A stretch of DNA of 21,031 nucleotides from positions 1 through 21,031 of the forward strand of contig JAYUCR010000397.1 of the NCBI GenBank assembly GCA_043740165.1, written 5' to 3'. This document shows positions 3,225-21,031 of the stretch, one piece after another (the first letter of the stretch is position 1; every line of letters starts with the position of its first letter). The notes beneath the pieces are model-generated. The model did not search any database. It was not told the origin of the DNA and saw nothing but the letters and a program-made list of their open reading frames with translations. A program made the position numbers and the translations under genes. The DNA comes from Acidobacteriota bacterium. Lineage in GTDB: Bacteria; Acidobacteriota; Polarisedimenticolia; Gp22-AA2.

Positions 3225-5671
<2,447 letters not shown>

Positions 5672-5767: not shown

Positions 5768-9235
<3,468 letters not shown>

Positions 9236-9236
9236 C

Positions 9237-10787
9237 CTACTCCCACTCGATGGTGGCCGGGGGCTTGCTGCTGATGTCGTAGACGACGCGGTTGATGCCG
9301 CGCACCTCGTTCACGATGCGCAACGAGACGCGCGCCAGGAATTCGTGCGGCAGCCTGGCCCAGTCGGCGGTCATGAAGTCGTCGGTGGTGACGGCGCGGA
9401 TCGCCGCGACGTTCTCGTAGGTCCGGCCATCCCCCATCACGCCGACCGACTTGACCGGCAGGAGCACAACGAACGCCTGCGCGGTCGCGTCGTACAGCGA
9501 CGCGGCCCGCAGCTCGGCGATGAAGATCGCGTCGGCGCGGCGCAGGAGATCGAGACGCGGGCGTGTCACCTCGCCGAGGATCCGCACCGCCAGCCCCGGC
9601 CCGGGAAACGGGTGCCGCATCACGAGATCCTTCGCCAGGCCCAGCTCCAGCCCGACGCGGCGGACCTCGTCCTTGAACAGATCGCGCAGCGGCTCCACCA
9701 GCTTGAGGCGCATCGCTTTGGGGAGGCCGCCGACGTTGTGGTGCGTCTTGATGACCGCCGAGGGGCCCTTGAAGGAGGTCGATTCGATCCGATCGGGATA
9801 AAGGGTCCCCTGCGCCAGGAACTCGACCGGCCCGAGCGTCCTGGCCTCCTTGTCGAACACCTCGATGAAGACCCGGCCGATGGCGCGGCGCTTGGCCTCC
9901 GGATCCTCGACCCCCGAGAGCGCGGTGAGAAAGGCGTCGGCGGCCTCGACGCGCCGGACCGCCAGGTGGTACCCGGTGGAAAAGGCGCGCACCACCTCGT
10001 CCCCCTCGTCCTGGCGCAGCAGGCCGTTGTCGATGAACAGACAGGTGAGGCGATCGCCGATGGCGCGGTGGATCAGGAGGGCCGCCACGGCCGAGTCGAC
10101 GCCGCCCGAAAGCCCGGCGACCACGCGCCCCGCTCCGACCGTCTCCTGCACTTCGCGCACCGCCTCCTCGATGAACGAGCTGATCTTCCAGTCCCCGGAG
10201 CAGCCACAGACGGCGTGCAGGAACGACCCCAGGATCTCGCGCCCATGGATCGTGTGCGACACCTCGGGATGGAACTGGATGGCGTACAGCCGGCGCCGCG
10301 CATCCACCATGGCGGCGCAGGCGGCGTTGGTGCTCCGGGCGACGGTGCGGAAGCCGGGCGGTGGCTCCAGGATCGAGTCGCCGTGGCTCATCCAGACCCG
10401 CTGCGACTTCGGCACGGAGCCGAAGATCGCCGCGTCGCCGGTGATCGTGAGATCGGACGGGCCATACTCGCGCTCCGGCACGCGCTCCACCCGGCCGCCC
10501 AGCGTGTAGGCCATGAGCTGCATGCCATAGCAGATCCCGAGAATCGGCACGCCGAGATCGAACAGCGCCGGGTCGACGCGCGGCGCCCCTTCGCCGTAGA
10601 CCGAGTCGGGCCCGCCGGAAAGGATGATGCCGCGGGGCCCCATGGCGCGCAGCGTCCCGATCGGCGTGTTGAACGGAAGCAATTCGCTGTAGACGCGCAG
10701 CTCGCGCACCCGCCGCGCGATCAGCTGGCTGAACTGCGACCCGAAGTCGAGGACCAGGACCGTCTCGCGGGTCGCCCCTCGGCTCAT
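9237..10787 (-). CDS. guaA: GMP synthase (glutamine-hydrolysing)
   Basis: 516-aa ORF with an N-terminal class-I glutamine amidotransferase domain ([28 protein letters not shown]) and an ATP-pyrophosphatase P-loop (SGGVDSAV). It ends with the universal IEWE terminus. Its start overlaps the holA stop by 4 nt (ATGA). Confidence 0.93.
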
Positions 10788-11812
10788 GACGCTCCCCCCG
10801 CGGCGCGGGCGATGCCATGCACCAGGCGCTCGAACGCATGCGCCGGGTTCTTCGCTCCGGCCCCTTTGATCTCCCGGTCGGCGCGCAGGCAGAGTCTCAG
10901 GGCGCGCCGCAGCTGCGGCGCGCTCACCTTCCCTGTCTCGCTGCGGAGCTGCTCGACGCGGCCCGGGTTGAGACCGTAGAGAGCCTGGAGATCGCGCGGC
11001 GGCACGCGGCGATCGGCAGCGGCGCGCGCCTTCAGGGCGGCGCGCAGGTACCAGGCGATGGCCCCCAGCATCATGGGCGGCTCCTCGCCCGATTCGAGGA
11101 GATCGCGCACGCTCCTGAGGGCAGGCCCGCGATCGCCTCGCAGCGCCAGGAGGGCCACCTGGAACGCCGAGCCGACGCGCGGCACGTCCGCCAGGATGCC
11201 GAGGTCGGTCACCTCGACCGGCCGGGGCGCGCCGATGGCGGCCATCAGCTTTTCCATCTCCGAATCAACGCGCGCCAGGCCGGCGCCCGACAGGCCCACC
11301 GCGATCGCCTCCGCGAGCTCCGGCGAGAGGCCGAAGCTGCGCCCCTTCAGGCGATCCCGCACCCAGGCGGCCACCTGGGAGACGTCGCGCAGGGCGCCGC
11401 AGTCGACGCGAGTCGCCGCGGCGGCCAGGGCCTTGTAGACGGCCCGGCGGGCGTCGAATTCGGCGTCGCTGAAGATCAGGCAGGTGCTTGCGCTCGGTCG
11501 CGCCAGGTAGGCCTTGAGAGACTCGACGCTCTCCGCCTTCAGGCCTGAAGCGCGCCGGACCAGGATCAGCCGCCGGCCCGCCCCCATCGGATAGGTCGAG
11601 GCGAGGTCGAGAAGCTCTTGCAGGTCGGCCTCCCGCCCGTCGACGACGTGCCGGTTGATCCCCCCCGCGTCGACGGGCAGGGCGGCCCGTTCCAGGAGGC
11701 GGATCCCCTCCTCGTGAAAAAAAGTCTCCGGCCCCTCGAACAGGTAGACGGGATCGATCTGCCCGCGCAGGAGCGCCTGCTGCAATTGCGCGAATCGCAG
11801 GGAGGCGACCAT
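10784..11812 (-). CDS. holA: DNA polymerase III delta subunit
   Basis: 342-aa ORF. The N-terminus [23 protein letters not shown] and the overall AAA+-like architecture match HolA. Its position between lptE and downstream genes matches the conserved leuS-lptE-holA synteny. Confidence 0.8.
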
Positions 11813-11817
11813 CGGCT

Positions 11818-12348
11818 TCAGAACCCCTCCAGGATCGAGCTGACCACGCTCTTCGCGAAGTCGGTCGCGACCTCGTCGATCGCGACGATTTCCTGATCCA
11901 CGAAGGTGCTGGGAGTCGCCGGCACCTCGTACTGGCGCTTGAACAGGAAATGGTCGTCGGACCAGAGAACCTTGTCGGTTTTGACCTCGCTCAGGACGAC
12001 GCGCGCGGTGATCAGAATCTCGTAGCGCCGCGCCCGTCCCTGCTCGCTGATCACGACCGGCGTCGTCGTGTAGCTGTAGAGCGTGCCGCGCAGCACGGCA
12101 TCGGCCCCTTCCTCTCCCGGCACGATGCGCACCCGGCCGCGGGTCGTGAACTCGTCGATCACGTGCTCGGTGACCCGCTGCTCGACCTCGGCGCGGCTTG
12201 TCCGGTTGATGAAGATCGGGATCCCGACGGCATGGACCGTCGGCGGCAGCGTGCTCCCCCGCCCGGCCAGGTGGTAGCCGCAGCCCGTCGACGCGATGGC
12301 GAGCGTCAGGGAGAGGGATCGCGCCAGCGCGGCGGTTCGGGGCGACAT
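11818..12348 (-). CDS. lptE: LPS-assembly lipoprotein LptE (RlpB-like)
   Basis: 176-aa ORF with a lipoprotein signal ending ...LAIASTGC followed by the characteristic CGYHLAG mature N-terminus of LptE. It sits immediately downstream of leuS, the conserved position. Confidence 0.7.
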   Translation of the reverse strand: MSPRTAALARSLSLTLAIASTGCGYHLAGRGSTLPPTVHAVGIPIFINRTSRAEVEQRVTEHVIDEFTTRGRVRIVPGEEGADAVLRGTLYSYTTTPVVISEQGRARRYEILITARVVLSEVKTDKVLWSDDHFLFKRQYEVPATPSTFVDQEIVAIDEVATDFAKSVVSSILEGF

Positions 12349-15030: not shown

Positions 15031-15053
15031 GCATGGGGATTGCGGCCCCATGC
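15031..15053. promoter_or_regulatory. Perfect 8-bp GC-rich inverted repeat GCATGGGG-N7-CCCCATGC in the leuS leader / divergent promoter region
   Basis: Read directly from the sequence. It is the first of four copies of a CCCATGC-type motif in this intergenic region. Confidence 0.3.
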
Positions 15054-15220
15054 TTCGTGGCTCCGCCTCATCAAGTGCACCCACATCGATTCCTCCTCGC
15101 GTCTCGCCTGGGACACGCAAGCCCCATGCGCGCGACCCATGCCAATACTCGGACCGGCTCCTAGTCGATTTCAGAATTGCAAGCGGGGCCTTCCGCCTTC
15201 CTTCCACCCCCCGCGTCACC

Positions 15221-15249
15221 TTGCGAGTCTGTCATCGGAACCTATATTC
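15221..15249 (+). promoter_or_regulatory. Sigma70-like promoter for the plus-strand operon: TTGCGA (-35), 17-bp spacer, TATATT (-10)
   Basis: Hexamers at 15221-15226 and 15244-15249 with an exact 17-bp spacer. The predicted TSS is near 15256, about 30 nt upstream of the first CDS, with a GGGGAGAGGGG SD in between. Confidence 0.4.
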
Positions 15250-15285
15250 CCTCCGCTCAAGACGCGGAAATAACCGGGGAGAGGG

Positions 15286-16428
15286 GTGATGCAGGAAGCG
15301 ACGAGGCCGGTAGACATAGAGGAAGACCCCGGACCGTCACAGGGGCTCGACCTCATTGGCCTGCTCGCGGCGCCGGGGCCGATGGGGGCCGCGCTCCGGT
15401 CGGCGATGCGCGATCTCCCCCCCTCCGCGGTCCCGGGACTCGTGGAGCGGCTGGTCTACCACCGCATCGACGGCCTGGCCTGGCGCGCCATCGCCGGCCT
15501 TCCGGCGGACGAGATCGACCCCTGGCTCCGCGCCACGCTGCGCCGCCGGCACCAGCAGCGCAGCGCCGCGGTCCTGGCGCAGGGACTGGGGCTCGCCGAG
15601 GTGCTCGATCACCTGACGCGGGCCGGCGTGCCGGTCGCGGTGACGCGCGGGCTGCGGGTCATCGAGTGGATCTACCGTGACACGGGGGCGAGGCCGTTCG
15701 AGGATCACGATCTCCTGGTCCGGCCCGCCGACGAGCCGCTGGCGTGCGCCGTCCTGCAGCGCCTGGGGTACGAGGAACGCGCCCCCCGCCTTTTCCGCCG
15801 CACCACCATCACGCTGGACCTGCACACCGACCCGCTCGGAGCGCGCCGCCGCCCGACGCGCGCGCAGCTCTTCCCGATCGACGTCGAGGCGCTGTTCCGT
15901 GACGCCAGCCCCGGCTGGATCGCCGGCGGCCCGGCGATGATCCTGGCCCCCGAGGACGAGATCCTGCTGCTCGCGCTGCACGTCGTGAAACATTCCTTCG
16001 ATCGCCTGATCCGCACCGCCGACCTGGCGCACCTGGTCGCCGTGCACGGCAACGCCATCTGCTGGGAAAGGGTTCGGGAGCGCGCCGAGGAGGCGCGCGC
16101 CACGCGGCTCCTCGGCCTGGCGTTTGGCGCCGCGACGCCGTTCGGCATCACGGTGCCGGCGGCGGTGCGCCTGCCGGAGCCTTTCGCCGGCCTCGAAGGG
16201 CTGCTGCTCGATCGCGTCCGCGCCTTCCGTCCCCTCCCCTACTGCGGAGAGGTGCTGATGGCGATGGCCGCTCCGCGCTTCCTCGATCGCCTGCGCTACG
16301 TCCTCGATGCGCTCGTCCCGGCGGGCGAGGCGCCGGCGGGCGGCTGGTCGGCGGCGGAGATCCCCCGCCGCAGCGTGATTCTGCTCGACGGCGCCGCGCG
16401 CCGGATGCGTGAAAGGAGACGGGCGTGA
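15286..16428 (+). CDS. Uncharacterised nucleotidyltransferase-family protein (PF14907/NTP_transf_5-like; Pol-beta superfamily)
   Basis: 380-aa ORF. The block AGVPVAVTRGLRVIEWIYRDTGARPFEDHDLLVRPADEPLACAVLQRLGY matches the KG..-Y.dpg.R..sDiDlLV...d...a...L...Gy signature of this family as I remember it. The start is GTG 15286 or ATG 15289 after a G-rich SD. The stop TGA overlaps the next start as GTGA. Confidence 0.6.
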   Translation: MMQEATRPVDIEEDPGPSQGLDLIGLLAAPGPMGAALRSAMRDLPPSAVPGLVERLVYHRIDGLAWRAIAGLPADEIDPWLRATLRRRHQQRSAAVLAQGLGLAEVLDHLTRAGVPVAVTRGLRVIEWIYRDTGARPFEDHDLLVRPADEPLACAVLQRLGYEERAPRLFRRTTITLDLHTDPLGARRRPTRAQLFPIDVEALFRDASPGWIAGGPAMILAPEDEILLLALHVVKHSFDRLIRTADLAHLVAVHGNAICWERVRERAEEARATRLLGLAFGAATPFGITVPAAVRLPEPFAGLEGLLLDRVRAFRPLPYCGEVLMAMAAPRFLDRLRYVLDALVPAGEAPAGGWSAAEIPRRSVILLDGAARRMRERRRA

Positions 16429-16730
16429 TCGAACCTGGAACCGCACGTTACATCCCCTCCCCCGACGTGGTGACGCGCAACATCGCCGGCGAGCACCTGC
16501 TGGTGCCGGTGCGCACCGGTGTCGCGCAGATGGACTACCTGTACACCGCCGACGAGGTGGGGAGCGTCATCTTCTCCCTGCTCGACGGGCAGCGCGACGC
16601 GACCGCCATCGGCCGCCATGTCGCGGAGCTGTTCGAGGTCGACGCGGCGCAGGCCACGGCCGACGTGGCGGCCTTCCTCCAGGAGCTGGAACAGGCCGGA
16701 CTGGTCCGCCTGGCCGGGGAGGACCGTTGA
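16425..16730 (+). CDS. PqqD-family protein, a standalone RiPP precursor recognition element (RRE)
   Basis: 101 aa. The pattern VTRNIAGEHLLVPVRTG..YLYTADEVGSVIFSLLDGQRDATAIGRHVAELFEVDAAQATADVAAFLQELEQAGLV is the canonical PqqD/RRE pattern. The GTG start has AAGGAG 6 nt upstream and overlaps the upstream stop as GTGA. Confidence 0.85.
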   Translation: MIEPGTARYIPSPDVVTRNIAGEHLLVPVRTGVAQMDYLYTADEVGSVIFSLLDGQRDATAIGRHVAELFEVDAAQATADVAAFLQELEQAGLVRLAGEDR

Positions 16731-18031
16731 GCGCCTGCTCCCCGGTCACGTACCAGGAGTTCGGCAAGAGCGTGATGCAGGCATGCGCCGGGGCACGCGT
16801 GCCGCTGTCCGGCTCGTTCGAGCTGACCTTCAAGTGCAACCTGCGCTGCGTGCACTGCTACATCCCGGACTTCTCCGGGCGCGACGAGATGACCACCTCC
16901 GAGGTGCAGCGGATCCTGAGCGAGGCGGCCGATGAGGGATGCCTCTGGATGCTGCTCACCGGCGGCGAGGTCCTGTCGCGCGCCGACTTCCGCGAGATCT
17001 ACCTGCACGCCAAGCGCCTGGGGCTGCTGCTGACCGTGTTCAGCAACGGCACCCTCCTGGACGAACGGATCGCCGATCTGCTGGCCGAGTACCCGCCGCG
17101 GGGTATCGAGATCACCCTCTATGGGATGTCGGACGCGACGTATCTGCGCACCACCGGCTCACCGGGGCGTTTCACGCGGGTCAAGCGGGCGGTCGAGCTG
17201 CTGGCGGAGCGCCGCATCGACCTCACCCTGAAGGCGATCGCGATGGAGGAGCTGCGCGACGAGATCCCGGTCATGCAGGCCTGGGCGGCGTCGATGGGGA
17301 TCCGCTTCCGGTACGACGGCACCATTCACGGCCGGCTCGACGGCTCGCTCAGCCCCACGGCGGCGCGTTCCACCCCGGAGCGGCTGGTGCAGCACGACAT
17401 CAACGACCCGCGGCGGCGCGCCGACTGGATGACCTTCTACCGCGACTACGTCAAGCCGGCGCGCAAGAGCGAGATGCTGATGTCGTGCGGCGCCGGGGTG
17501 CAGAGCTTCCACGTCGACCCCAAGGGGACCCTGCTGTCGTGCGAGGCGCTCAACCTCGACGCCTACGATCTGCGCCGCGGCACGTTCCGGGAAGGCTGGT
17601 ACGGCATCGTCGGCCGCGTGCGCGAGCGCCGCGCGGCGGCCCACAACGTCTGCGCCGGCTGCGAGATCAAAGCCCTCTGCGATCGCTGCCCGGCCACGGC
17701 GCTGCTCGAGACCGGCAGCCCCGACGGCTGGATCCCCTACTACTGCGAAGTGACCCACAGGCGGGCCTCCTTCCTGGAGGCCGAGCTGGGAAACACGGAA
17801 GCCGCGGCGCGCTACATGGCCCACGCCGAGAAGGTGGCCGGCGGGTGGACTCCCGAAGGGGTCATCCTGCCGCGCGCCTCGGCGCTGCGCGCGAGCGCCG
17901 CCCCGGCGGGCGGCTGCGCGTCCGGCGGATGCACCTCGGGCGGGTGCGGCAAGCCTGCCGCGGCCGCCGCCAGTCCCCAGCCGTTGCAGATCGATTTGAA
18001 CCGCAGCAACACGATGGAGAGACAGCGATGA
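16727..18031 (+). CDS. Radical SAM / SPASM-domain peptide maturase (PqqE/sactipeptide/ranthipeptide-synthase-like)
   Basis: The CNLRCVHC (CxxxCxxC) AdoMet cluster is near the N-terminus and a GGE-like motif (LLTGGEVL) follows. A full SPASM signature is present: CGAGVQSFHVDPKGTLLSC is CX12GX4C, then CAGCEIKALCDRC, then a final YYCEV Cys. The start is uncertain. TTG 16727 overlaps the PqqD stop as TTGA with GGAGG 4 nt upstream. GTG 16772 and ATG 16775 are alternatives. The first ~100 codons of the ORF-track entry (16409-) are out-of-frame overlap with the PqqD gene and are not real. Confidence 0.88.
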   Translation: MSACSPVTYQEFGKSVMQACAGARVPLSGSFELTFKCNLRCVHCYIPDFSGRDEMTTSEVQRILSEAADEGCLWMLLTGGEVLSRADFREIYLHAKRLGLLLTVFSNGTLLDERIADLLAEYPPRGIEITLYGMSDATYLRTTGSPGRFTRVKRAVELLAERRIDLTLKAIAMEELRDEIPVMQAWAASMGIRFRYDGTIHGRLDGSLSPTAARSTPERLVQHDINDPRRRADWMTFYRDYVKPARKSEMLMSCGAGVQSFHVDPKGTLLSCEALNLDAYDLRRGTFREGWYGIVGRVRERRAAAHNVCAGCEIKALCDRCPATALLETGSPDGWIPYYCEVTHRRASFLEAELGNTEAAARYMAHAEKVAGGWTPEGVILPRASALRASAAPAGGCASGGCTSGGCGKPAAAAASPQPLQIDLNRSNTMERQR

Positions 18032-18219
18032 CACGCAGCCCCGAGAAGCCCGGCGCGCCGGCGCGCCGGTCGTACCACCCGCCGCAGCTGCAGCGGGTCA
18101 GCCTGGTCCCCGACGAAGCCGTTCTCGCCTCCTGCAAGACCGCGACCGTGCAGGGGCCGCTGGGCGCCTCGGCAAAATGCACCGGCACCCCTTCACTCTG
18201 CTCGCACGATGGCTCCTAA
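18028..18219 (+). CDS. Candidate RiPP precursor peptide, 63 aa: MTRSPEKPGAPARRSYHPPQLQRVSLVPDEAVLASCKTATVQGPLGASAKCTGTPSLCSHDGS
   Basis: It is not listed separately in the ORF track because it is the 3-prime end of the long frame-1 ORF 16939-18219. ATG 18028 overlaps the rSAM stop as ATGA and has a GGAGAG SD 6 nt upstream. The stop TAA at 18217 is overlapped by the kinase start. GC3 is high. The product has three Cys in its C-terminal third and a C-terminal Ser. Confidence 0.6.
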   Translation: MTRSPEKPGAPARRSYHPPQLQRVSLVPDEAVLASCKTATVQGPLGASAKCTGTPSLCSHDGS

Positions 18220-19132
18220 CACACCCCGTCCGTTGATCCTGGAGATCGCCGGCATCGGCCTCTCCGTGCGGCCGGCCGAGCCGGGGATCGATCTGGTCAC
18301 CGACGCCGCCCACGAGCCGTTTCTGGCGGAAGGGATCGGCGACGACTGCGCCTCGATCGTCCTGGCGCCGGTGGCCTCCACCCGGCCGCCGCGCACCAAG
18401 GGCCGGACGATCTTCGACACCGGCTGCGTCTGGCGTCTGGAGGAGAGCGGCGACGGGCACCTCCTGACGCTGCGCTCGCCGGTGTTCGGCGCCGACCCGT
18501 ATCTCGCGGTGGAATTCGACGCCCAGTATTCCCGCGGCCAGGGGGAAACGCTCGACGGCGGCCCTCATCTGCTGGGAGCGACCATGCACCCTTTCGTCTA
18601 TCCGTTCGACGAGGTGGTCTTCCTGGCCCGCCTGGCGCGCGGCCGCGGCGTGCTGGTGCATGCCTGCGGTCTCACCTATCGCGGGCGCGGCATCCTGCTG
18701 CTCGGCACCTCGGGCGCCGGCAAGAGCACCTCGGCGCGCCTCTGGTCCGAGCGCCCCGCCGCCCGCGTCCTCTCGGACGATCGCATCGTCATCCGCCGCG
18801 ACGACGAGGGTTATCGCATCTTCGGGACCCCCTGGCACGGGGACGCCGGGCTCGAGTCGCCCGGCTCGGCGCCGCTGTGCGCCGTCTTCATCCTCGAGCA
18901 GGCGCCGCGCAATCGCGTCGTCGAGATGCCTCCCTCGCAGGCGGTGGCCCAGATGATGGTGCGCGCCTTTCCCGCCATGTGGGATCAGGGAGGCCTGGAG
19001 TTCGCGGTGAAGTTTCTGTCGCAGATGACCGAGCGGGTCCCGGTGCGGCGGCTGCAGTTCCTGCCCGAAGCCTCGGCGGTCGATTGCGTGCTCGGGGCGA
19101 TCGATGGGGGGCTCGATGCCGAAGGGGCCTGA
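18209..19132 (+). CDS. HprK-like serine kinase (HPr kinase/phosphorylase C-terminal-domain fold; RiPP peptide kinase-like)
   Basis: 307 aa. The block VLVHACGLTYRGRGILLLGTSGAGKSTSARLWSERPAARVLSDDRIVI matches the HprK C-domain P-loop region (VHG..V...G.GVLI.G.SG.GKS..AL.L...G..LVSDD.V.I). The ATG overlaps the precursor gene end by 11 nt. Confidence 0.8.
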   Translation: MAPNTPRPLILEIAGIGLSVRPAEPGIDLVTDAAHEPFLAEGIGDDCASIVLAPVASTRPPRTKGRTIFDTGCVWRLEESGDGHLLTLRSPVFGADPYLAVEFDAQYSRGQGETLDGGPHLLGATMHPFVYPFDEVVFLARLARGRGVLVHACGLTYRGRGILLLGTSGAGKSTSARLWSERPAARVLSDDRIVIRRDDEGYRIFGTPWHGDAGLESPGSAPLCAVFILEQAPRNRVVEMPPSQAVAQMMVRAFPAMWDQGGLEFAVKFLSQMTERVPVRRLQFLPEASAVDCVLGAIDGGLDAEGA

Positions 19133-19136
19133 AGAA

Positions 19137-21031
19137 GTGAACGGGGGCTCTCCCGGGTCGAGCCCGGCCCCGCCGGTCCTCCTGGCGGAGCGCCAGGGAG
19201 TGGTGTTCGTCGCCACGTCACAAAGCGTCGACGGCCTGCGCGTCCCGCGGCGTTACTGGGGGACCGACATGGGTGTCGTGGCGATCCCGGCGCACGAGGA
19301 GGAGGTGCGGGCCTGCGAGCTGCTCCCCCCTTCGGATGCCGGCGCCTGGCCGCGCGCCCTGCCGCGCCCCGACCTGCTCTCTCCGGTTCTGTCGCGTCTC
19401 CTCAGCGTCGAGCACATGGAGATGAGTCTCTATCCGGGGCGCGACGGCCTGAAAGCGATGCTGATCGCCCCGGACGGGCAGCGCCTGCCGTTCCCGATCG
19501 CCCCCAAGGATGCGCTCGGCCTCCTGGCCGCGGTCTTCCACCATGCGCCGCGCGGTGTCGTCGCCCTGAACGCGAGCCGCCCCGGGCGGCTGCTCCTCGC
19601 CGTCCAGCCGGCCGCCCGGCCGCACGAGTACCGCGTGCGGCTCGCCGGCGCCGTGGCCACACCGAAGCCGGGCAGCCTGCCCGAGATTGGCGCCTCGATG
19701 TCGCTCCTCGAAATCCTGAACGAATCGCTCGATCGTCCCTCGGGATTGATGCTGGTCGCCGGGGGCAGCTCCTCGGGGCGCAGCACGACCCTGGACCTTC
19801 TGGCCGGATCGCTCCTGGCGCGCGGCCGGAGCGGCGGCCGGATCGGCCCGCGGCGCGAGACCGCGAACCCGAACCTCCCCTGGCTCGCCGACGCCGTCAC
19901 CGACTGGCCGTTTCCGGAGAGCCTCAAGGAGGCGGCGCCCGACTTCGTCATGATGGAGCGGCTGGAAGGACTGCGGCACCTGCTGCTCGCCGCCCGCCTC
20001 GCCGGGACGGGGACGCTGGTGCTGGCCGGCGCGCCCCCCGCCGAGCCGCAGGCGCTGGTGCGCCGCGTGGCGCGCGAGCTCGAGGCCGGCGCCGGACCCG
20101 AGGTGCCGGTGATGGTGCTGGCGCAGTCCCTGCTGCGCACCGTCTGCCGCGGATGCACCACGTGGACGGCGATCCCGGCGGCGCGCGCGTTGCGCCTCGG
20201 GTTCCACCGCTGGGATCTGGAGGAGATGGAGCGCCGCGGCGGGCTCGCCGTCCCGGCCCGCAAAGGCTGCCCCACCTGTGCCGGGACCGGCATCGCCGGG
20301 CTCACGGGGGTGTTCAGCTATGCCGGGTCGGACGGCCTCTCGAGCGCGCTGCCGACGCTGCGCGAAGAAGGCTGGCGCAAGGTTGTCGAAGGCATCGCCG
20401 ACGTCGATGACGTCGCGGCCCTGCCGGGTGGGCATCACGCCATGCGTTCCCTGCGCGAGATCGCCGTGCTGGCCGGCACGACGCCGATGGCGCGCCATGA
20501 GCCCGACGGCGTCGCCACCGCGGCGTCGGCCCGTCCGGTCGCCGCGCGACCCGCCGCGGCCCCGCCGGTCAAGTCCGGCGCCGTCGCGCGCGGCTCCTCC
20601 TCCGCCGACGTCGACATCCTCGTGGCGCTGTTGCGCGCCGCGCGCGCCGGGCAGCCGCCGCAGCCGGAGCGCATGGCCGAGCTGGCGCGCGGCGTCGCCG
20701 GCCGGGCGATGCAGGGCGAGCTCGACACCCAGCTCCAGCCGCCGCCCGCCGGCTACCACATGGGGCGCCGGGCGGTGAACACGGCGGTCCTGGCGGTGCG
20801 GATCGTGGCGGCGCTGGGTCAGACCGAGGACGCTCCGGCGACGGCCACGCTGGCGCTGCTCCATGACATCGGGCTGCTCGAGGCGGGTGTCGATCCGGGG
20901 GCCGAATCGGGCCCTCAACTGAGCGAAGCCGCTCTCGATCCCCAGGGGGCACGGATGCGCCCCGCCACCATGCTGCGCGCGCTTGGCCTTCCCGACGCCG
21001 AGCTGGCGGCCCGGATCGCCGACGCGCAGAC
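19137..21031 (+). CDS. Partial (3-prime end runs off the window) GspE/PilB-type secretion-ATPase-fold protein with degenerate catalytic motifs, fused to a C-terminal HD domain
   Basis: I translated this manually (frame 0, no stop to the window end, over 630 codons), and it is absent from the ORF track. It aligns by eye to GspE/EpsE. LMLVAGGSSSGRSTTL matches LVTGPTGSGKSTTL, with the Walker A Lys replaced by Arg. APDFVMMERLEGL matches DPDVVMVGEIRDL. The His box is lost (TGTLVLAGAPPA for TGHLVMSTLHTN). The tetracysteine Zn motif is kept (VCRGC ... GCPTCAGTGIAGLTGVF). A C-terminal HD signature follows (YHMGRRAVNTAVLAVRIVAALG ... LALLHDIGLL). The start is GTG 19137 (AAGGGG 9 nt upstream) or an in-frame ATG at 19104/19116. 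Confidence 0.7.
   Translation, partial: MNGGSPGSSPAPPVLLAERQGVVFVATSQSVDGLRVPRRYWGTDMGVVAIPAHEEEVRACELLPPSDAGAWPRALPRPDLLSPVLSRLLSVEHMEMSLYPGRDGLKAMLIAPDGQRLPFPIAPKDALGLLAAVFHHAPRGVVALNASRPGRLLLAVQPAARPHEYRVRLAGAVATPKPGSLPEIGASMSLLEILNESLDRPSGLMLVAGGSSSGRSTTLDLLAGSLLARGRSGGRIGPRRETANPNLPWLADAVTDWPFPESLKEAAPDFVMMERLEGLRHLLLAARLAGTGTLVLAGAPPAEPQALVRRVARELEAGAGPEVPVMVLAQSLLRTVCRGCTTWTAIPAARALRLGFHRWDLEEMERRGGLAVPARKGCPTCAGTGIAGLTGVFSYAGSDGLSSALPTLREEGWRKVVEGIADVDDVAALPGGHHAMRSLREIAVLAGTTPMARHEPDGVATAASARPVAARPAAAPPVKSGAVARGSSSADVDILVALLRAARAGQPPQPERMAELARGVAGRAMQGELDTQLQPPPAGYHMGRRAVNTAVLAVRIVAALGQTEDAPATATLALLHDIGLLEAGVDPGAESGPQLSEAALDPQGARMRPATMLRALGLPDAELAARIADAQ

Follow-up and report, generated by a model that had tools for sequence, protein, structure and literature searches.

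The window, that is, the whole stretch of 21,031 nucleotides of acidobacterial DNA that was analysed, carries a forward-strand operon that begins beyond the intergenic region facing the divergent leuS gene and encodes, in order, an NTP_transf_5 nucleotidyltransferase-fold protein, a PqqD-family protein, a radical SAM/SPASM enzyme, a 63-aa precursor peptide and a ScmC-like P-loop protein with a putative kinase function, followed by a further co-directional gene (Table 1). A consensus promoter scan found two sites against 0.2 expected, and an Rfam scan of the window and the 5' region gave no match. The NTP_transf_5 gene, which is read here from GTG 15286 and in the public call from ATG 15289, retains its syntenic position in all orthologous loci with contigs long enough to reach it, and the PqqD gene lies directly upstream of the radical SAM gene in nearly all related loci. 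The gene for the ~780-aa protein, which starts at ATG 19104 or 19116 and overlaps its predecessor, is syntenic in all orthologous loci, and for an HD-like C-terminal region of its product there was only a Pfam match below cut-off, in the L009 orthologue. On a 97%-identical contig, this gene is followed by genes for Wza, Wzc, Wzy and glycosyltransferases, and in the Acidobacteriota clade the cassette stands at the front of an exopolysaccharide export locus (Wza-Wzc-Wzy). Loci with the cassette core (PqqD protein, enzyme, peptide and kinase-like protein) occur in many bacterial phyla. An earlier note on this DNA had overlooked that the enzyme gene is linked to genes for a kinase, a nucleotidyltransferase and exopolysaccharide functions, and a search of the open-access literature found no paper or functional study on the cassette. 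Several other open reading frames were rejected. ORF 15050-15289, considered as a further peptide gene, has an Arg/Ser-rich, junk-like translation and no counterpart in the public calls of the near-identical contig, while ORF 19218-20918 on the reverse strand (Arg-rich translation) and ORF 9232-10839, also on the reverse strand, match no family and are shadow ORFs of real genes that lie in a different frame or on the opposite strand.

Table 1. Features of the cassette and its flanks, with positions in the window
Feature	Position	Strand	Basis or remark
Promoter-like site TTGCGA-16-TATATT, in the divergent leuS/operon intergenic region	15221..15248	+	consensus match only
NTP_transf_5 nucleotidyltransferase-fold protein, 380 aa, first operon gene	15286..16428	+	PF14907, 108 bits vs 31.2
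PqqD-family peptide-recognition protein (RRE), discrete, 101 aa	16425..16730	+	PF05402, 54 bits vs 23.4
Shine-Dalgarno sequence GGGGAGGA	16716..16723	+	ends 3 nt (16724-16726) before TTG 16727; GGAGG core ends 4 nt before
Radical SAM/SPASM enzyme, 434 aa, predicted start TTG 16727	16727..18031	+	TTGA overlaps PqqD stop; own TGA stop overlaps precursor ATG
CX3CX2C motif (C37/C41/C44), SAM-cleaving [4Fe-4S] cluster	16835..16858	+	invariant in 63 sequences
SPASM domain, seven invariant Cys (C254, C272, C309, C312, C318, C321, C340)	17486..17746	+	TIGR04085 and Cys alignment
Clade-specific C-terminal extension, aa 345-434	17759..18028	+	alignment
Precursor peptide, 63 aa, MTRSPEKPGAPARRSYHPPQLQRVSLVPDEAVLAS-CKTATVQGPLGASAKCTGTPSLCSHDGS	18028..18219	+	leader YxxPxL, EAVLxxCK motif, three Cys, C-terminal Ser
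ScmC-like P-loop protein, PEPCK/HprK kinase fold, 307 aa, Walker A GTSGAGKST, putative peptide Ser/Thr kinase	18209..19132	+	PF27840 ScmC (precomputed)
Next co-directional gene, ~780-aa protein, cut by window end	19116..21031	+	weak T2SSE P-loop match

For the enzyme gene, the earlier note had named three in-frame start candidates, namely TTG 16727 (within TTGA), GTG 16772 and ATG 16775, and had pointed out that the first would keep an unbroken pattern of overlapping starts and stops along the operon. All three codons lie where it placed them, and with TTG the overlap chain is real, comprising GTGA at 16425 (NTP_transf_5 stop and PqqD start), TTGA at 16727 and ATGA at 18028, and continuing with 11 nt at 18209-18219 and with ATG 19104/19116 ahead of the stop at 19132. 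Upstream, the frame stays open as far as 16379 and offers GTG 16409 as a fourth candidate; this codon falls inside the PqqD gene and lacks a ribosome-binding site. The calculated anti-Shine-Dalgarno duplex energy is -11.0 kcal/mol at TTG 16727 versus -6.9 and -6.4 kcal/mol at the two internal candidates. When the comparison of homologues suggested in that note was carried out, about 100 orthologues of 421-446 aa were found to begin with M-(S/T)-x-C-x3-(S/T)-Y-x2-F-G at the TTG position, with ATG, GTG or TTG within 1-3 codons of it in the orthologous loci, and in three loci of a second clade (L021, L023 and L045) a stop codon stands at most one codon upstream of the gene's own start. Because the ATG is not where the homologues begin, and because the N-terminal extension of 16 aa is conserved, the TTG start is supported; the public gene call likewise gives 434 aa. 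On this comparative basis the predicted start may be regarded as resolved at TTG 16727, which would yield the N-terminal peptide (f)MSACSPVTYQEFGK. Initiation at ATG 16775 or GTG 16772, with 16 upstream codons left untranslated, would use codons that are both in frame and, in the case of ATG, the commoner start codon, but it is extremely improbable in view of the conservation of the extension in ~100 orthologues and also in the second clade, the variability of the residue aligned with M17 (the ATG candidate), the NTGA coupling to the PqqD stop codon, a 4-nt overlap retained in 17 of 18 orthologous loci, and the weak and misplaced Shine-Dalgarno pairing of both codons.

The protein is a radical SAM/SPASM enzyme. 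Its earlier assignment to this class, from a CX3CX2C cluster and a seven-Cys SPASM domain, is confirmed by motif mapping of the translation, by domain models above their cut-offs and by the invariance of all ten of these cysteines in 63 homologues with 40-94% identity. The SPASM cysteines are arranged as CX12GX4C (C254-C272) and CX2CX5CX2C (C309/C312/C318/C321), with C340 as the seventh, and a GGE motif occurs at residue 79. Among the 16 cysteines of the whole protein, C72 is also invariant in both clades and lies outside the ten motif positions. Pfam Radical_SAM (PF04055) scores 77 bits against a cut-off of 29.5, and the SPASM model TIGR04085, aligned over profile positions 1-87 of 93, reaches 33.4 bits where its curated cut-off is 27; the Pfam SPASM model PF13186 is not matched. 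The seven-Cys arrangement that had been called textbook stands, but the label is slightly generous, since the last spacing is CX2C and not the CX3C of the canonical motif CX9-15GX4C-gap-CX2CX5CX3C-gap-C (PMC6231123). Only ~25 residues precede the radical SAM core, which has the partial TIM-barrel fold common to solved radical SAM enzymes. The AF2 model of the enzyme matches SuiB, anSME, ChlB, SkfB, PqqE and CteB; a sequence search of solved structures found no close relative (SkfB was best, at 61 bits), and a phmmer search with the SPASM region alone against solved SPASM enzymes, run to map the ligand cysteines, gave chance matches only (E > 0.8).

The enzyme exceeds the SPASM domain cut-off, yet it falls below the cut-off of every curated enzyme family. 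Models of known thioether maturases and related enzymes give only 11-65 bits against cut-offs of 300-850 (StsB 65/625, AlbA 45/850, PapB 44/340, SkfB 43/300, and the SCIFF maturase 10.9/425, the last on the SPASM part of the enzyme), and the models of the radical SAM enzymes from two bioinformatically defined cassettes likewise score far below their thresholds (ScmE 69.6/400, ScmF 38.6/400 and GeoRSP_rSAM 42.7/400). MftC (77.6 bits, cut-off 265) and PqqE (66.3 bits, cut-off 381), which both make C-C bonds, give the best HMM alignments over the full length. Since no curated maturase family cut-off is reached, the sequence gives no hint of the bond type.

Beyond the SPASM domain, the Acidobacteriota clade bears a C-terminal extension consisting of two helices followed by a disordered tail (pLDDT < 50 for residues 391-434), which, according to the alignment, is absent from the second clade of 360-390 aa. 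The tail contains a CX4CX4C triad (C397/C402/C407, nt 17915-17947) that is invariant in the clade bearing it, and the extension ends with a conserved P(L/I)xI(E/D)xP. Family-model searches of the extension returned no match, and a phmmer search for the tail outside this radical SAM family, against 1.84 billion representatives, gave only low-complexity noise. A tblastn alignment running from the enzyme into the L033 peptide had raised the idea that the tail is a fused copy of the precursor, which was rejected because hhalign of the tail against the peptide profile gave a probability of 0.2% and an E-value of 0.26. The clade-specific triad had not been mentioned in the earlier note.

A downstream peptide had also been proposed as the substrate, and the gene overlapping the enzyme stop does encode a real, conserved, Cys-containing precursor, which occurs together with the enzyme and a PqqD protein in the majority of the 60-odd related loci that were compared; an identical 63-aa product appears in the public gene calls (P0121). 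A small ORF occupies the position between the radical SAM and ScmC-like genes in ~40 loci from many phyla. Among 59 unique peptides, all carry a YxxPx[LIVM] leader motif and end in Ser or Thr, 58 carry EAVLxxCK, and 57 have exactly three cysteines (57 of the 58 with an EAVLxxCK-type motif). The peptide core has diverged about as little as the enzymes have. The lasso-peptide leader motif is YxxPxL (PMC10368454); the lasso-type leader and the invariant C-terminal Ser/Thr are features on which the initial description was silent.

The phosphorylated lasso peptide clusters (paeninodin, pseudomycoidin and Bsf, with genes A, B1, B2, C, K and N) show close parallels in the leader and in the tailoring proteins. 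The YxxPx[LIVM] leader is shared, and the leaders of the second clade read YKKPQ(I/L), similar to the YKKPQL of BsfA. A discrete PqqD/B1-type RRE is likewise present; its best NCBIfam matches are lasso PqqD chaperones, below cut-off, and it shares 28.6% identity with the lasso protein BsfB1 over 91 aa. An HprK-related P-loop kinase homologue and a PF14907 nucleotidyltransferase-fold protein mirror K and N. The ScmC-like protein gives weak matches to TIGR04249, TIGR04355 and PF07475, its AF2 model (pLDDT 92.4) resembles PEP carboxykinases (Foldseek E 6e-7) and HprK/P 1kkl (E 1.7e-4), and a profile of its family gives 36 bits with BsfK, a validated lasso kinase. An invariant Ser/Thr at the C-terminus of the peptide recalls the C-terminal Ser that is phosphorylated by PsmK, after which PsmN adds a hexose to the phosphate (PMC9266682), and the lasso B1 RRE is known to speed phosphorylation (PMC10368454). 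In contrast to these clusters, neither the lasso cyclase (the Asn-synthase-like C protein) nor the B2 leader protease was found among the window ORFs or the annotated gene tables of related loci, a radical SAM/SPASM enzyme stands in their place, and the core has three invariant cysteines instead of the Gly1...Asp/Glu macrolactam pattern.

A similar parts list, namely a PqqD-family protein, a radical SAM/SPASM enzyme and an HprK-related or ScmC protein, defines the Scm and GeoRSP/HPr-rel-A cassettes, which are bioinformatic definitions of NCBIfam/TIGRFAM and for which no open-access paper was found. Proteins of the present cassette match ScmC, HprK_rel_B, ScmD, geo_PqqD, ScmE and GeoRSP_rSAM weakly. 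The SynChlorMet equivalogs are not reached (ScmC 37.7 bits against 125, ScmD 17.6 against 100), and only the broader Pfam family ScmC (PF27840) is matched. Moreover, SynChlorMet has an ScmE and ScmF pair whereas the cassette here has one radical SAM gene, and, unlike the Scm and GeoRSP definitions, it includes a clear precursor peptide family.

The reading favoured here, and considered fairly probable, is that a TTG-started radical SAM/SPASM maturase, whose start is coupled to the PqqD stop, acts on the downstream peptide with the help of the PqqD protein. We infer that the discrete RRE would bind the YxxPx[LIVM] leader of the 63-aa precursor and offer its core to the enzyme, where the CX3CX2C cluster would cleave SAM to a 5'-deoxyadenosyl radical that takes a hydrogen atom from a core residue. 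The SPASM domain is predicted to carry two auxiliary Fe-S clusters, as the seven-Cys motif does in solved relatives (PMC6231123). Because there are seven cysteines for two clusters and the linker lacks an eighth (no Cys occurs between residues 73 and 253), Aux I probably has a free site, which could take a substrate cysteine thiolate; for AlbA, the same count had led to the proposal of an open site, and in CteB Aux I was seen to have one (PMC6231123). The product would then contain Cys-derived thioether cross-links from the three invariant core cysteines, an assignment of chemistry that is held tentatively, at slightly under an even chance; the earlier note had allowed for either thioether or C-C crosslinks. 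The ScmC-like kinase and the NTP_transf_5 protein would then probably phosphorylate a Ser/Thr residue and add to the phosphate, with the invariant C-terminal residue as the likeliest target; phosphorylation at the C-terminus is judged to be evenly balanced. On this last point, BsfK phosphorylates Ser3, so lasso kinase targets are not always C-terminal (PMC10368454), which was counted against the main model.

With the thioether enzymes CteB, AlbA, PapB and the SCIFF maturase (and SkfB, a Twitch-domain relative), the protein shares the radical SAM and SPASM fold and a Cys-containing precursor encoded next to the enzyme, and with AlbA and CteB also seven SPASM cysteines and no eighth ligand. It differs from them in the CX2C last spacing and, in the Acidobacteriota clade, the Cys-triad tail. 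Known thioether synthases usually bear a fused N-terminal RRE, whereas the RRE here is a separate PqqD gene, and the want of an N-terminal fusion weighs against the thioether model, as does the peptide alignment, which displays no obvious acceptor residues. The principal alternative keeps the same enzyme, partner and substrate and proposes instead a C-C or C-O cross-link, epimerisation or oxidative C-terminal tailoring, as carried out by PqqE, MftC, SuiB and epimerases, with the three cysteines serving, for example, in disulfides or metal binding. In architecture, the ~25-aa N-terminus, radical SAM core, SPASM domain and separate PqqD-family partner resemble the PqqE/PqqD and MftC/MftB pairs, and the operon, like those of PqqE and MftC, lacks a transporter and encodes a peptide core about as conserved as its enzymes. 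In contrast, the precursor is unrelated to PqqA and MftA, possessing neither the PqqA Glu/Tyr pair nor the MftA C-terminal Val-Tyr, and the CXC motif of PqqE, whose auxiliary clusters are fully ligated (PMC6231123), is not present. The alternative chemistry is regarded as rather unlikely, if still to be reckoned with.

A non-peptide substrate, for instance a tetrapyrrole as for AhbD and NirJ, or else a lipid or sugar from the neighbouring exopolysaccharide pathway, with the small ORF as an incidental neighbour, is very improbable: AhbD and NirJ2 are the top NCBIfam scores and the Acidobacteriota cassette does head the exopolysaccharide locus, but those scores (~80 bits against a cut-off of 500) fall mainly on the generic radical SAM core, and across phyla the enzyme is flanked by the PqqD protein and a conserved peptide with an RRE-type leader motif, irrespective of the other genes around them.

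New peptide chemistry comes in large part from radical SAM/SPASM enzymes, and a new bond type may be hidden in any family that is still uncharacterised. The present family comprises ~100 close orthologues plus a second clade that spans many phyla, reaches no curated model, has no solved close relative, and is accompanied by a clearly recognisable precursor family, a recognition protein acting in trans and two tailoring enzymes. With the start settled, the correct 434-aa construct and its partner genes are ready for co-expression. The shared components suggest that a module known from phosphorylated lasso peptides (leader, RRE, kinase and nucleotidyltransferase) can move between systems and has here been joined to radical chemistry. 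A more far-reaching reading, to which only a low probability is given, is that the cassette would represent a rewired lasso toolkit that retains the leader motif, the B1-type RRE, the HprK-like kinase and the PF14907 protein and in which the SPASM enzyme has replaced the cyclase and protease, yielding a cross-linked peptide with a phosphorylated or phosphoglycosylated C-terminal Ser/Thr; in the Acidobacteriota (Polarisedimenticolia), such a peptide would be no antibiotic but a conserved, fixed chromosomal factor coupled to the Wza-Wzc-Wzy machinery, for instance as a regulator or as a peptide-phosphate primer or anchor of the polymer, with the Cys-triad tail serving that role as a docking element or as an additional site for a metal or cluster. 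In uncultured Acidobacteriota, the fixed place of the cassette as the first part of an exopolysaccharide export locus is a hint that its role is physiological rather than antibiotic.

The window has a G+C content of 70% and is a chromosomal piece. Its minus strand carries housekeeping genes, and its plus strand carries, from ~15286 onward, a run of genes in which the stop of one overlaps the start of the next. The same genes are present in a 68-kb ENA metagenome scaffold (L070), with 97% identity across the 6.2 kb compared, and its public gene calls include the 434-aa radical SAM protein, the 63-aa peptide, and a 307-aa "ScmC" family protein. An Rfam scan of the ~250-330-nt region 5' of the operon, which contains a promoter-like site, returned zero matches, and hence gave no sign of a riboswitch preceding the cassette and the exopolysaccharide genes behind it. 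Two long minus-strand frames were rejected as spurious shadows: a 535-aa ORF without family that overlaps guaA, and an Arg-rich 566-aa ORF on the strand opposite the T2SSE-like gene. In the T2SSE-like gene, an HD-like region was matched below cut-off in the orthologue of the related locus L009 only.

Features of the window and of related loci, with their coordinates
Locus	Feature	Position	Strand
Window	TPR/phosphodiesterase protein, ahcY, metK, dnaE, guaA, holA, lptE, leuS (housekeeping genes)		-
Window	535-aa ORF (rejected)	9232-10839	-
Window	guaA, 516-aa frame	9237-10787	-
Window	Operon 5' region	15035-15285	
Window	Promoter-like site	15221-15248	
Window	NTP_transf_5 (PF14907)	15286-16428	+
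Window	PqqD (PF05402)	16425-16730	+
Window	Radical SAM gene	16727-18031	+
Window	C-terminal extension, aa 345-434	17759-18028	+
Window	Tail Cys triad	17915-17947	+
Window	63-aa ORF (precursor peptide)	18028-18219	+
Window	307-aa P-loop protein	18209-19132	+
Window	Large T2SSE-like gene, last in chain	runs past window end (21031)	+
Window	566-aa ORF (rejected)	19218-20918	-
L023	Small gene directly after ScmC-like gene	8264-8743	
L065	Genes inserted between rSAM and precursor genes	9083-10344	
L065	Small gene directly after ScmC-like gene	11758-12201	
L066	Small gene directly after ScmC-like gene	4179-4703	
L067-L070	wza (Poly_export); wzc (Wzz/GNVR/P-loop)		

The evidence settles TTG 16727 as the start codon of the radical SAM enzyme. 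Searching 5.8 billion proteins yielded ~100 orthologues (62-94% identity, 421-446 aa), mostly from Acidobacteriota or Candidatus Polarisedimenticolia MAGs, together with a second clade of homologues (360-390 aa, 42-48% identity). The orthologue N-terminus, M-(S/T)-x-C-x3-(S/T)-Y-x2-F-G, falls exactly at the TTG position, and the alignment column of the internal Met17 is variable. The earlier note had listed this codon beside GTG 16772 and ATG 16775 as candidates, remarking that it would preserve the overlap pattern of the operon; the 16-aa N-terminal extension on which it proposed to decide is kept in the ~100 orthologues, and homologues do not begin at the ATG. Across 63 loci from GTDB species genomes, ATG, GTG, or TTG occupies this position, and a 4-nt NTGA overlap with the PqqD stop is found in 17 of the 18 orthologous loci (8 ATG, 7 GTG, 2 TTG). 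In three second-clade loci (L021, L023, and L045), a stop codon no more than one codon upstream fixes the N-terminus. In the window, GGGGAGGA precedes TTG 16727, with its GGAGG core ending 4 nt upstream, and the anti-SD duplex reaches -11.0 kcal/mol, compared with -6.9 and -6.4 for the internal candidates. The TTG start therefore stands.

In fold and motifs, the enzyme is a typical SPASM protein, and the family to which it belongs is uncharacterised. It carries the CX3CX2C motif (C37/C41/C44) and GGE at residue 79, and it scores 77 bits with Pfam Radical_SAM (cut-off 29.5) and, over residues 254-334, 33.4 bits with the NCBIfam SPASM domain TIGR04085 (cut-off 27). The three radical SAM cysteines, the seven SPASM cysteines (CX12GX4C, C254-C272; CX2CX5CX2C, C309-C321; C340) are invariant in an alignment of 63 homologues (40-94% identity), and C72 is a further invariant Cys. 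The CX3CX2C motif claimed earlier is thus borne out, whereas the "textbook" SPASM arrangement holds for the presence and invariance of seven cysteines but not for the last spacing, which in this family is CX2C rather than the canonical CX3C (PMC6231123), a small deviation. None of the curated NCBIfam enzyme families reached its cut-off, the best scores being AhbD 81, NirJ2 78, MftC 78, ScmE 70, PqqE 66, and StsB 65 bits, where the cut-offs range from 265 to 625 bits; the AlbA, PapB, SkfB, and GeoRSP models gave 42-45 bits, and a PDB-sequence profile search was led by SkfB (61 bits) and PqqE (50 bits). Since only ~25 residues precede the core, an RRE fusion is absent, and the RRE of the cassette is a separate 101-aa PqqD protein, a discrete organization also seen in PqqE/PqqD and MftC/MftB.

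In the Acidobacteriota clade, the enzyme ends in a ~90-aa extension of two confident helices and a disordered tail, the latter containing a conserved P(L/I)xI(E/D)xP motif and a triad, C397/C402/C407 (GGCxxGGCxxGGC, CX4CX4C), that is invariant in this clade and absent from the earlier note. Family searches matched the extension to nothing, it proved unrelated to the precursor on comparison, and it occurs in this enzyme family only. The Cys-triad tail may serve as an additional metal site or in docking.

The 63-aa ORF is a real gene: tblastn located it between the radical SAM and P-loop genes in 17 orthologous loci and in ~23 second-clade loci from Chloroflexota, Desulfobacterota, Aminicenantes, Omnitrophota, WOR-3, and other MAGs. 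Loci from Nitrospinae, Methylomirabilota, and one Thermoplasmata archaeon have PqqD and the radical SAM gene with no peptide match by tblastn. The 23 public-database protein clusters that match the peptide are all named "hypothetical". Among 59 unique peptides, YxxPx[LIVM] is universal, E(A/Q)(V/I)LxxCK occurs in 58, and exactly three cysteines from this motif onward in 57; the C-terminal residue is Ser (54) or Thr (5), usually preceded by Gly or Ala. YxxPxL is the lasso peptide leader motif, located at positions -17 to -12 (PMC10368454), and the same spacing would place the leader/core boundary ~3 residues before Cys36; second-clade leaders read YKKPQ(I/L), a match to YKKPQL in the lasso precursor BsfA. 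From the first Cys, the Acidobacteriota-clade peptide has a fixed 28 residues (CKx5GPxGx3KCx3Px2Cx4S), with a mean identity of 60%; identity is higher, 79%, over the last 22 residues of the leader and drops to 29% in the N-terminal part. Many antimicrobial RiPPs have hypervariable cores, but this core is well conserved, about as much as the cassette enzymes. In the Chloroflexota-type locus L065, a HEPN/nucleotidyltransferase pair and a Uma2 nuclease gene separate the radical SAM and precursor genes, indicating that the cassette tolerates interruption.

The partner proteins also resemble those of phosphorylated lasso peptide clusters. The PqqD protein matches lasso PqqD chaperones best among curated families, below cut-off, and is 28.6% identical to the lasso RRE BsfB1 over 91 aligned residues. 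The 307-aa protein has a Walker A motif (GTSGAGKST), the Pfam family ScmC (PF27840), and weak matches to ScmC, HprK_rel_B, and Hpr_kinase_C; its predicted model (pLDDT 92.4) matches PEP carboxykinases (E 6e-7) and HprK/P (E 1.7e-4), that is, the PEPCK/HprK kinase fold, and against BsfK (sequence from PMC10368454), a lasso-precursor kinase validated by experiment, its family profile reaches 36 bits in the nucleotide-binding core. BsfK targets Ser3, and in lasso systems the B1 RRE accelerates phosphorylation (PMC10368454). The lasso kinase PsmK phosphorylates the C-terminal Ser, and the PF14907-type PsmN adds hexose to the phosphoserine (PMC9266682). Four modules are shared with phosphorylated lasso clusters, but their class-defining enzymes are absent, with no lasso cyclase or B2 protease in the window or annotated related loci. 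In the second clade, a small gene of 147-174 aa often follows the ScmC-like gene, S24/S26-like in L023 and L065 (a candidate leader peptidase) and without a recorded Pfam match in L066 (174 aa). The window operon has no separate small gene of this kind; the Wza-like protein of L070 contains a weak S24 match. A similar parts list is found in the SynChlorMet, GeoRSP, and HPr-rel-A cassettes, which are defined by bioinformatics, but the window cassette stays below every one of their equivalog cut-offs and has a single radical SAM gene instead of two. No description of the cassette was found in the open-access literature. The cassette joins lasso-type recognition and tailoring to radical SAM chemistry.

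The earlier reading of the enzyme as a SPASM maturase is supported by the above-cut-off TIGR04085 match and the adjacent conserved Cys-containing peptide, and the enzyme is probably a leader-dependent maturase of that peptide. In the proposed pathway, the PqqD protein would bind the YxxPx[LIVM] leader, and the radical SAM enzyme, whose translation is coupled to that of PqqD, would take a core hydrogen via the 5'-deoxyadenosyl radical; a core cysteine held at an open Aux I site may then yield thioether cross-links. Because residues 73-253 are Cys-free, the two predicted auxiliary clusters are limited to seven Cys ligands. For AlbA, the same ligand count prompted the proposal of open coordination; in CteB, Aux I was seen to have an open site, and full ligation is found in anSME, SuiB, and PqqE (PMC6231123). 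The seven-ligand limit lends indirect support to a substrate-thiolate-binding, thioether-forming mechanism. Thioether synthases share the fold and Cys count, but the enzyme fails their models and lacks their fused RRE, and thioethers are a plausible product at slightly below even chances. The main rival reading, in which the enzyme modifies this peptide in another radical reaction (C-C or C-O linking, epimerisation, or MftC-like C-terminal tailoring), is less likely. Following thioether formation, the kinase and the nucleotidyltransferase-fold protein would decorate a Ser/Thr residue, for which the invariant residue at the C-terminus is the most plausible candidate; phosphorylation at the peptide C-terminus is an evenly balanced prospect.

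In all four long contigs (L067, L068, L069, and the near-identical L070), the cassette adjoins leuS-lptE-holA-guaA-dnaE and is followed by a T2SSE-like gene, wza, wzc, a Wzy_C gene, a flippase-like gene, and glycosyltransferases. This co-directional array, linked to the cassette by overlapping junctions, is an exopolysaccharide locus in the Acidobacteriota clade. Given this neighbourhood, the well-conserved core peptide, and a cassette operon without a transporter, the product may have a physiological, exopolysaccharide-linked role rather than that of an antibiotic.
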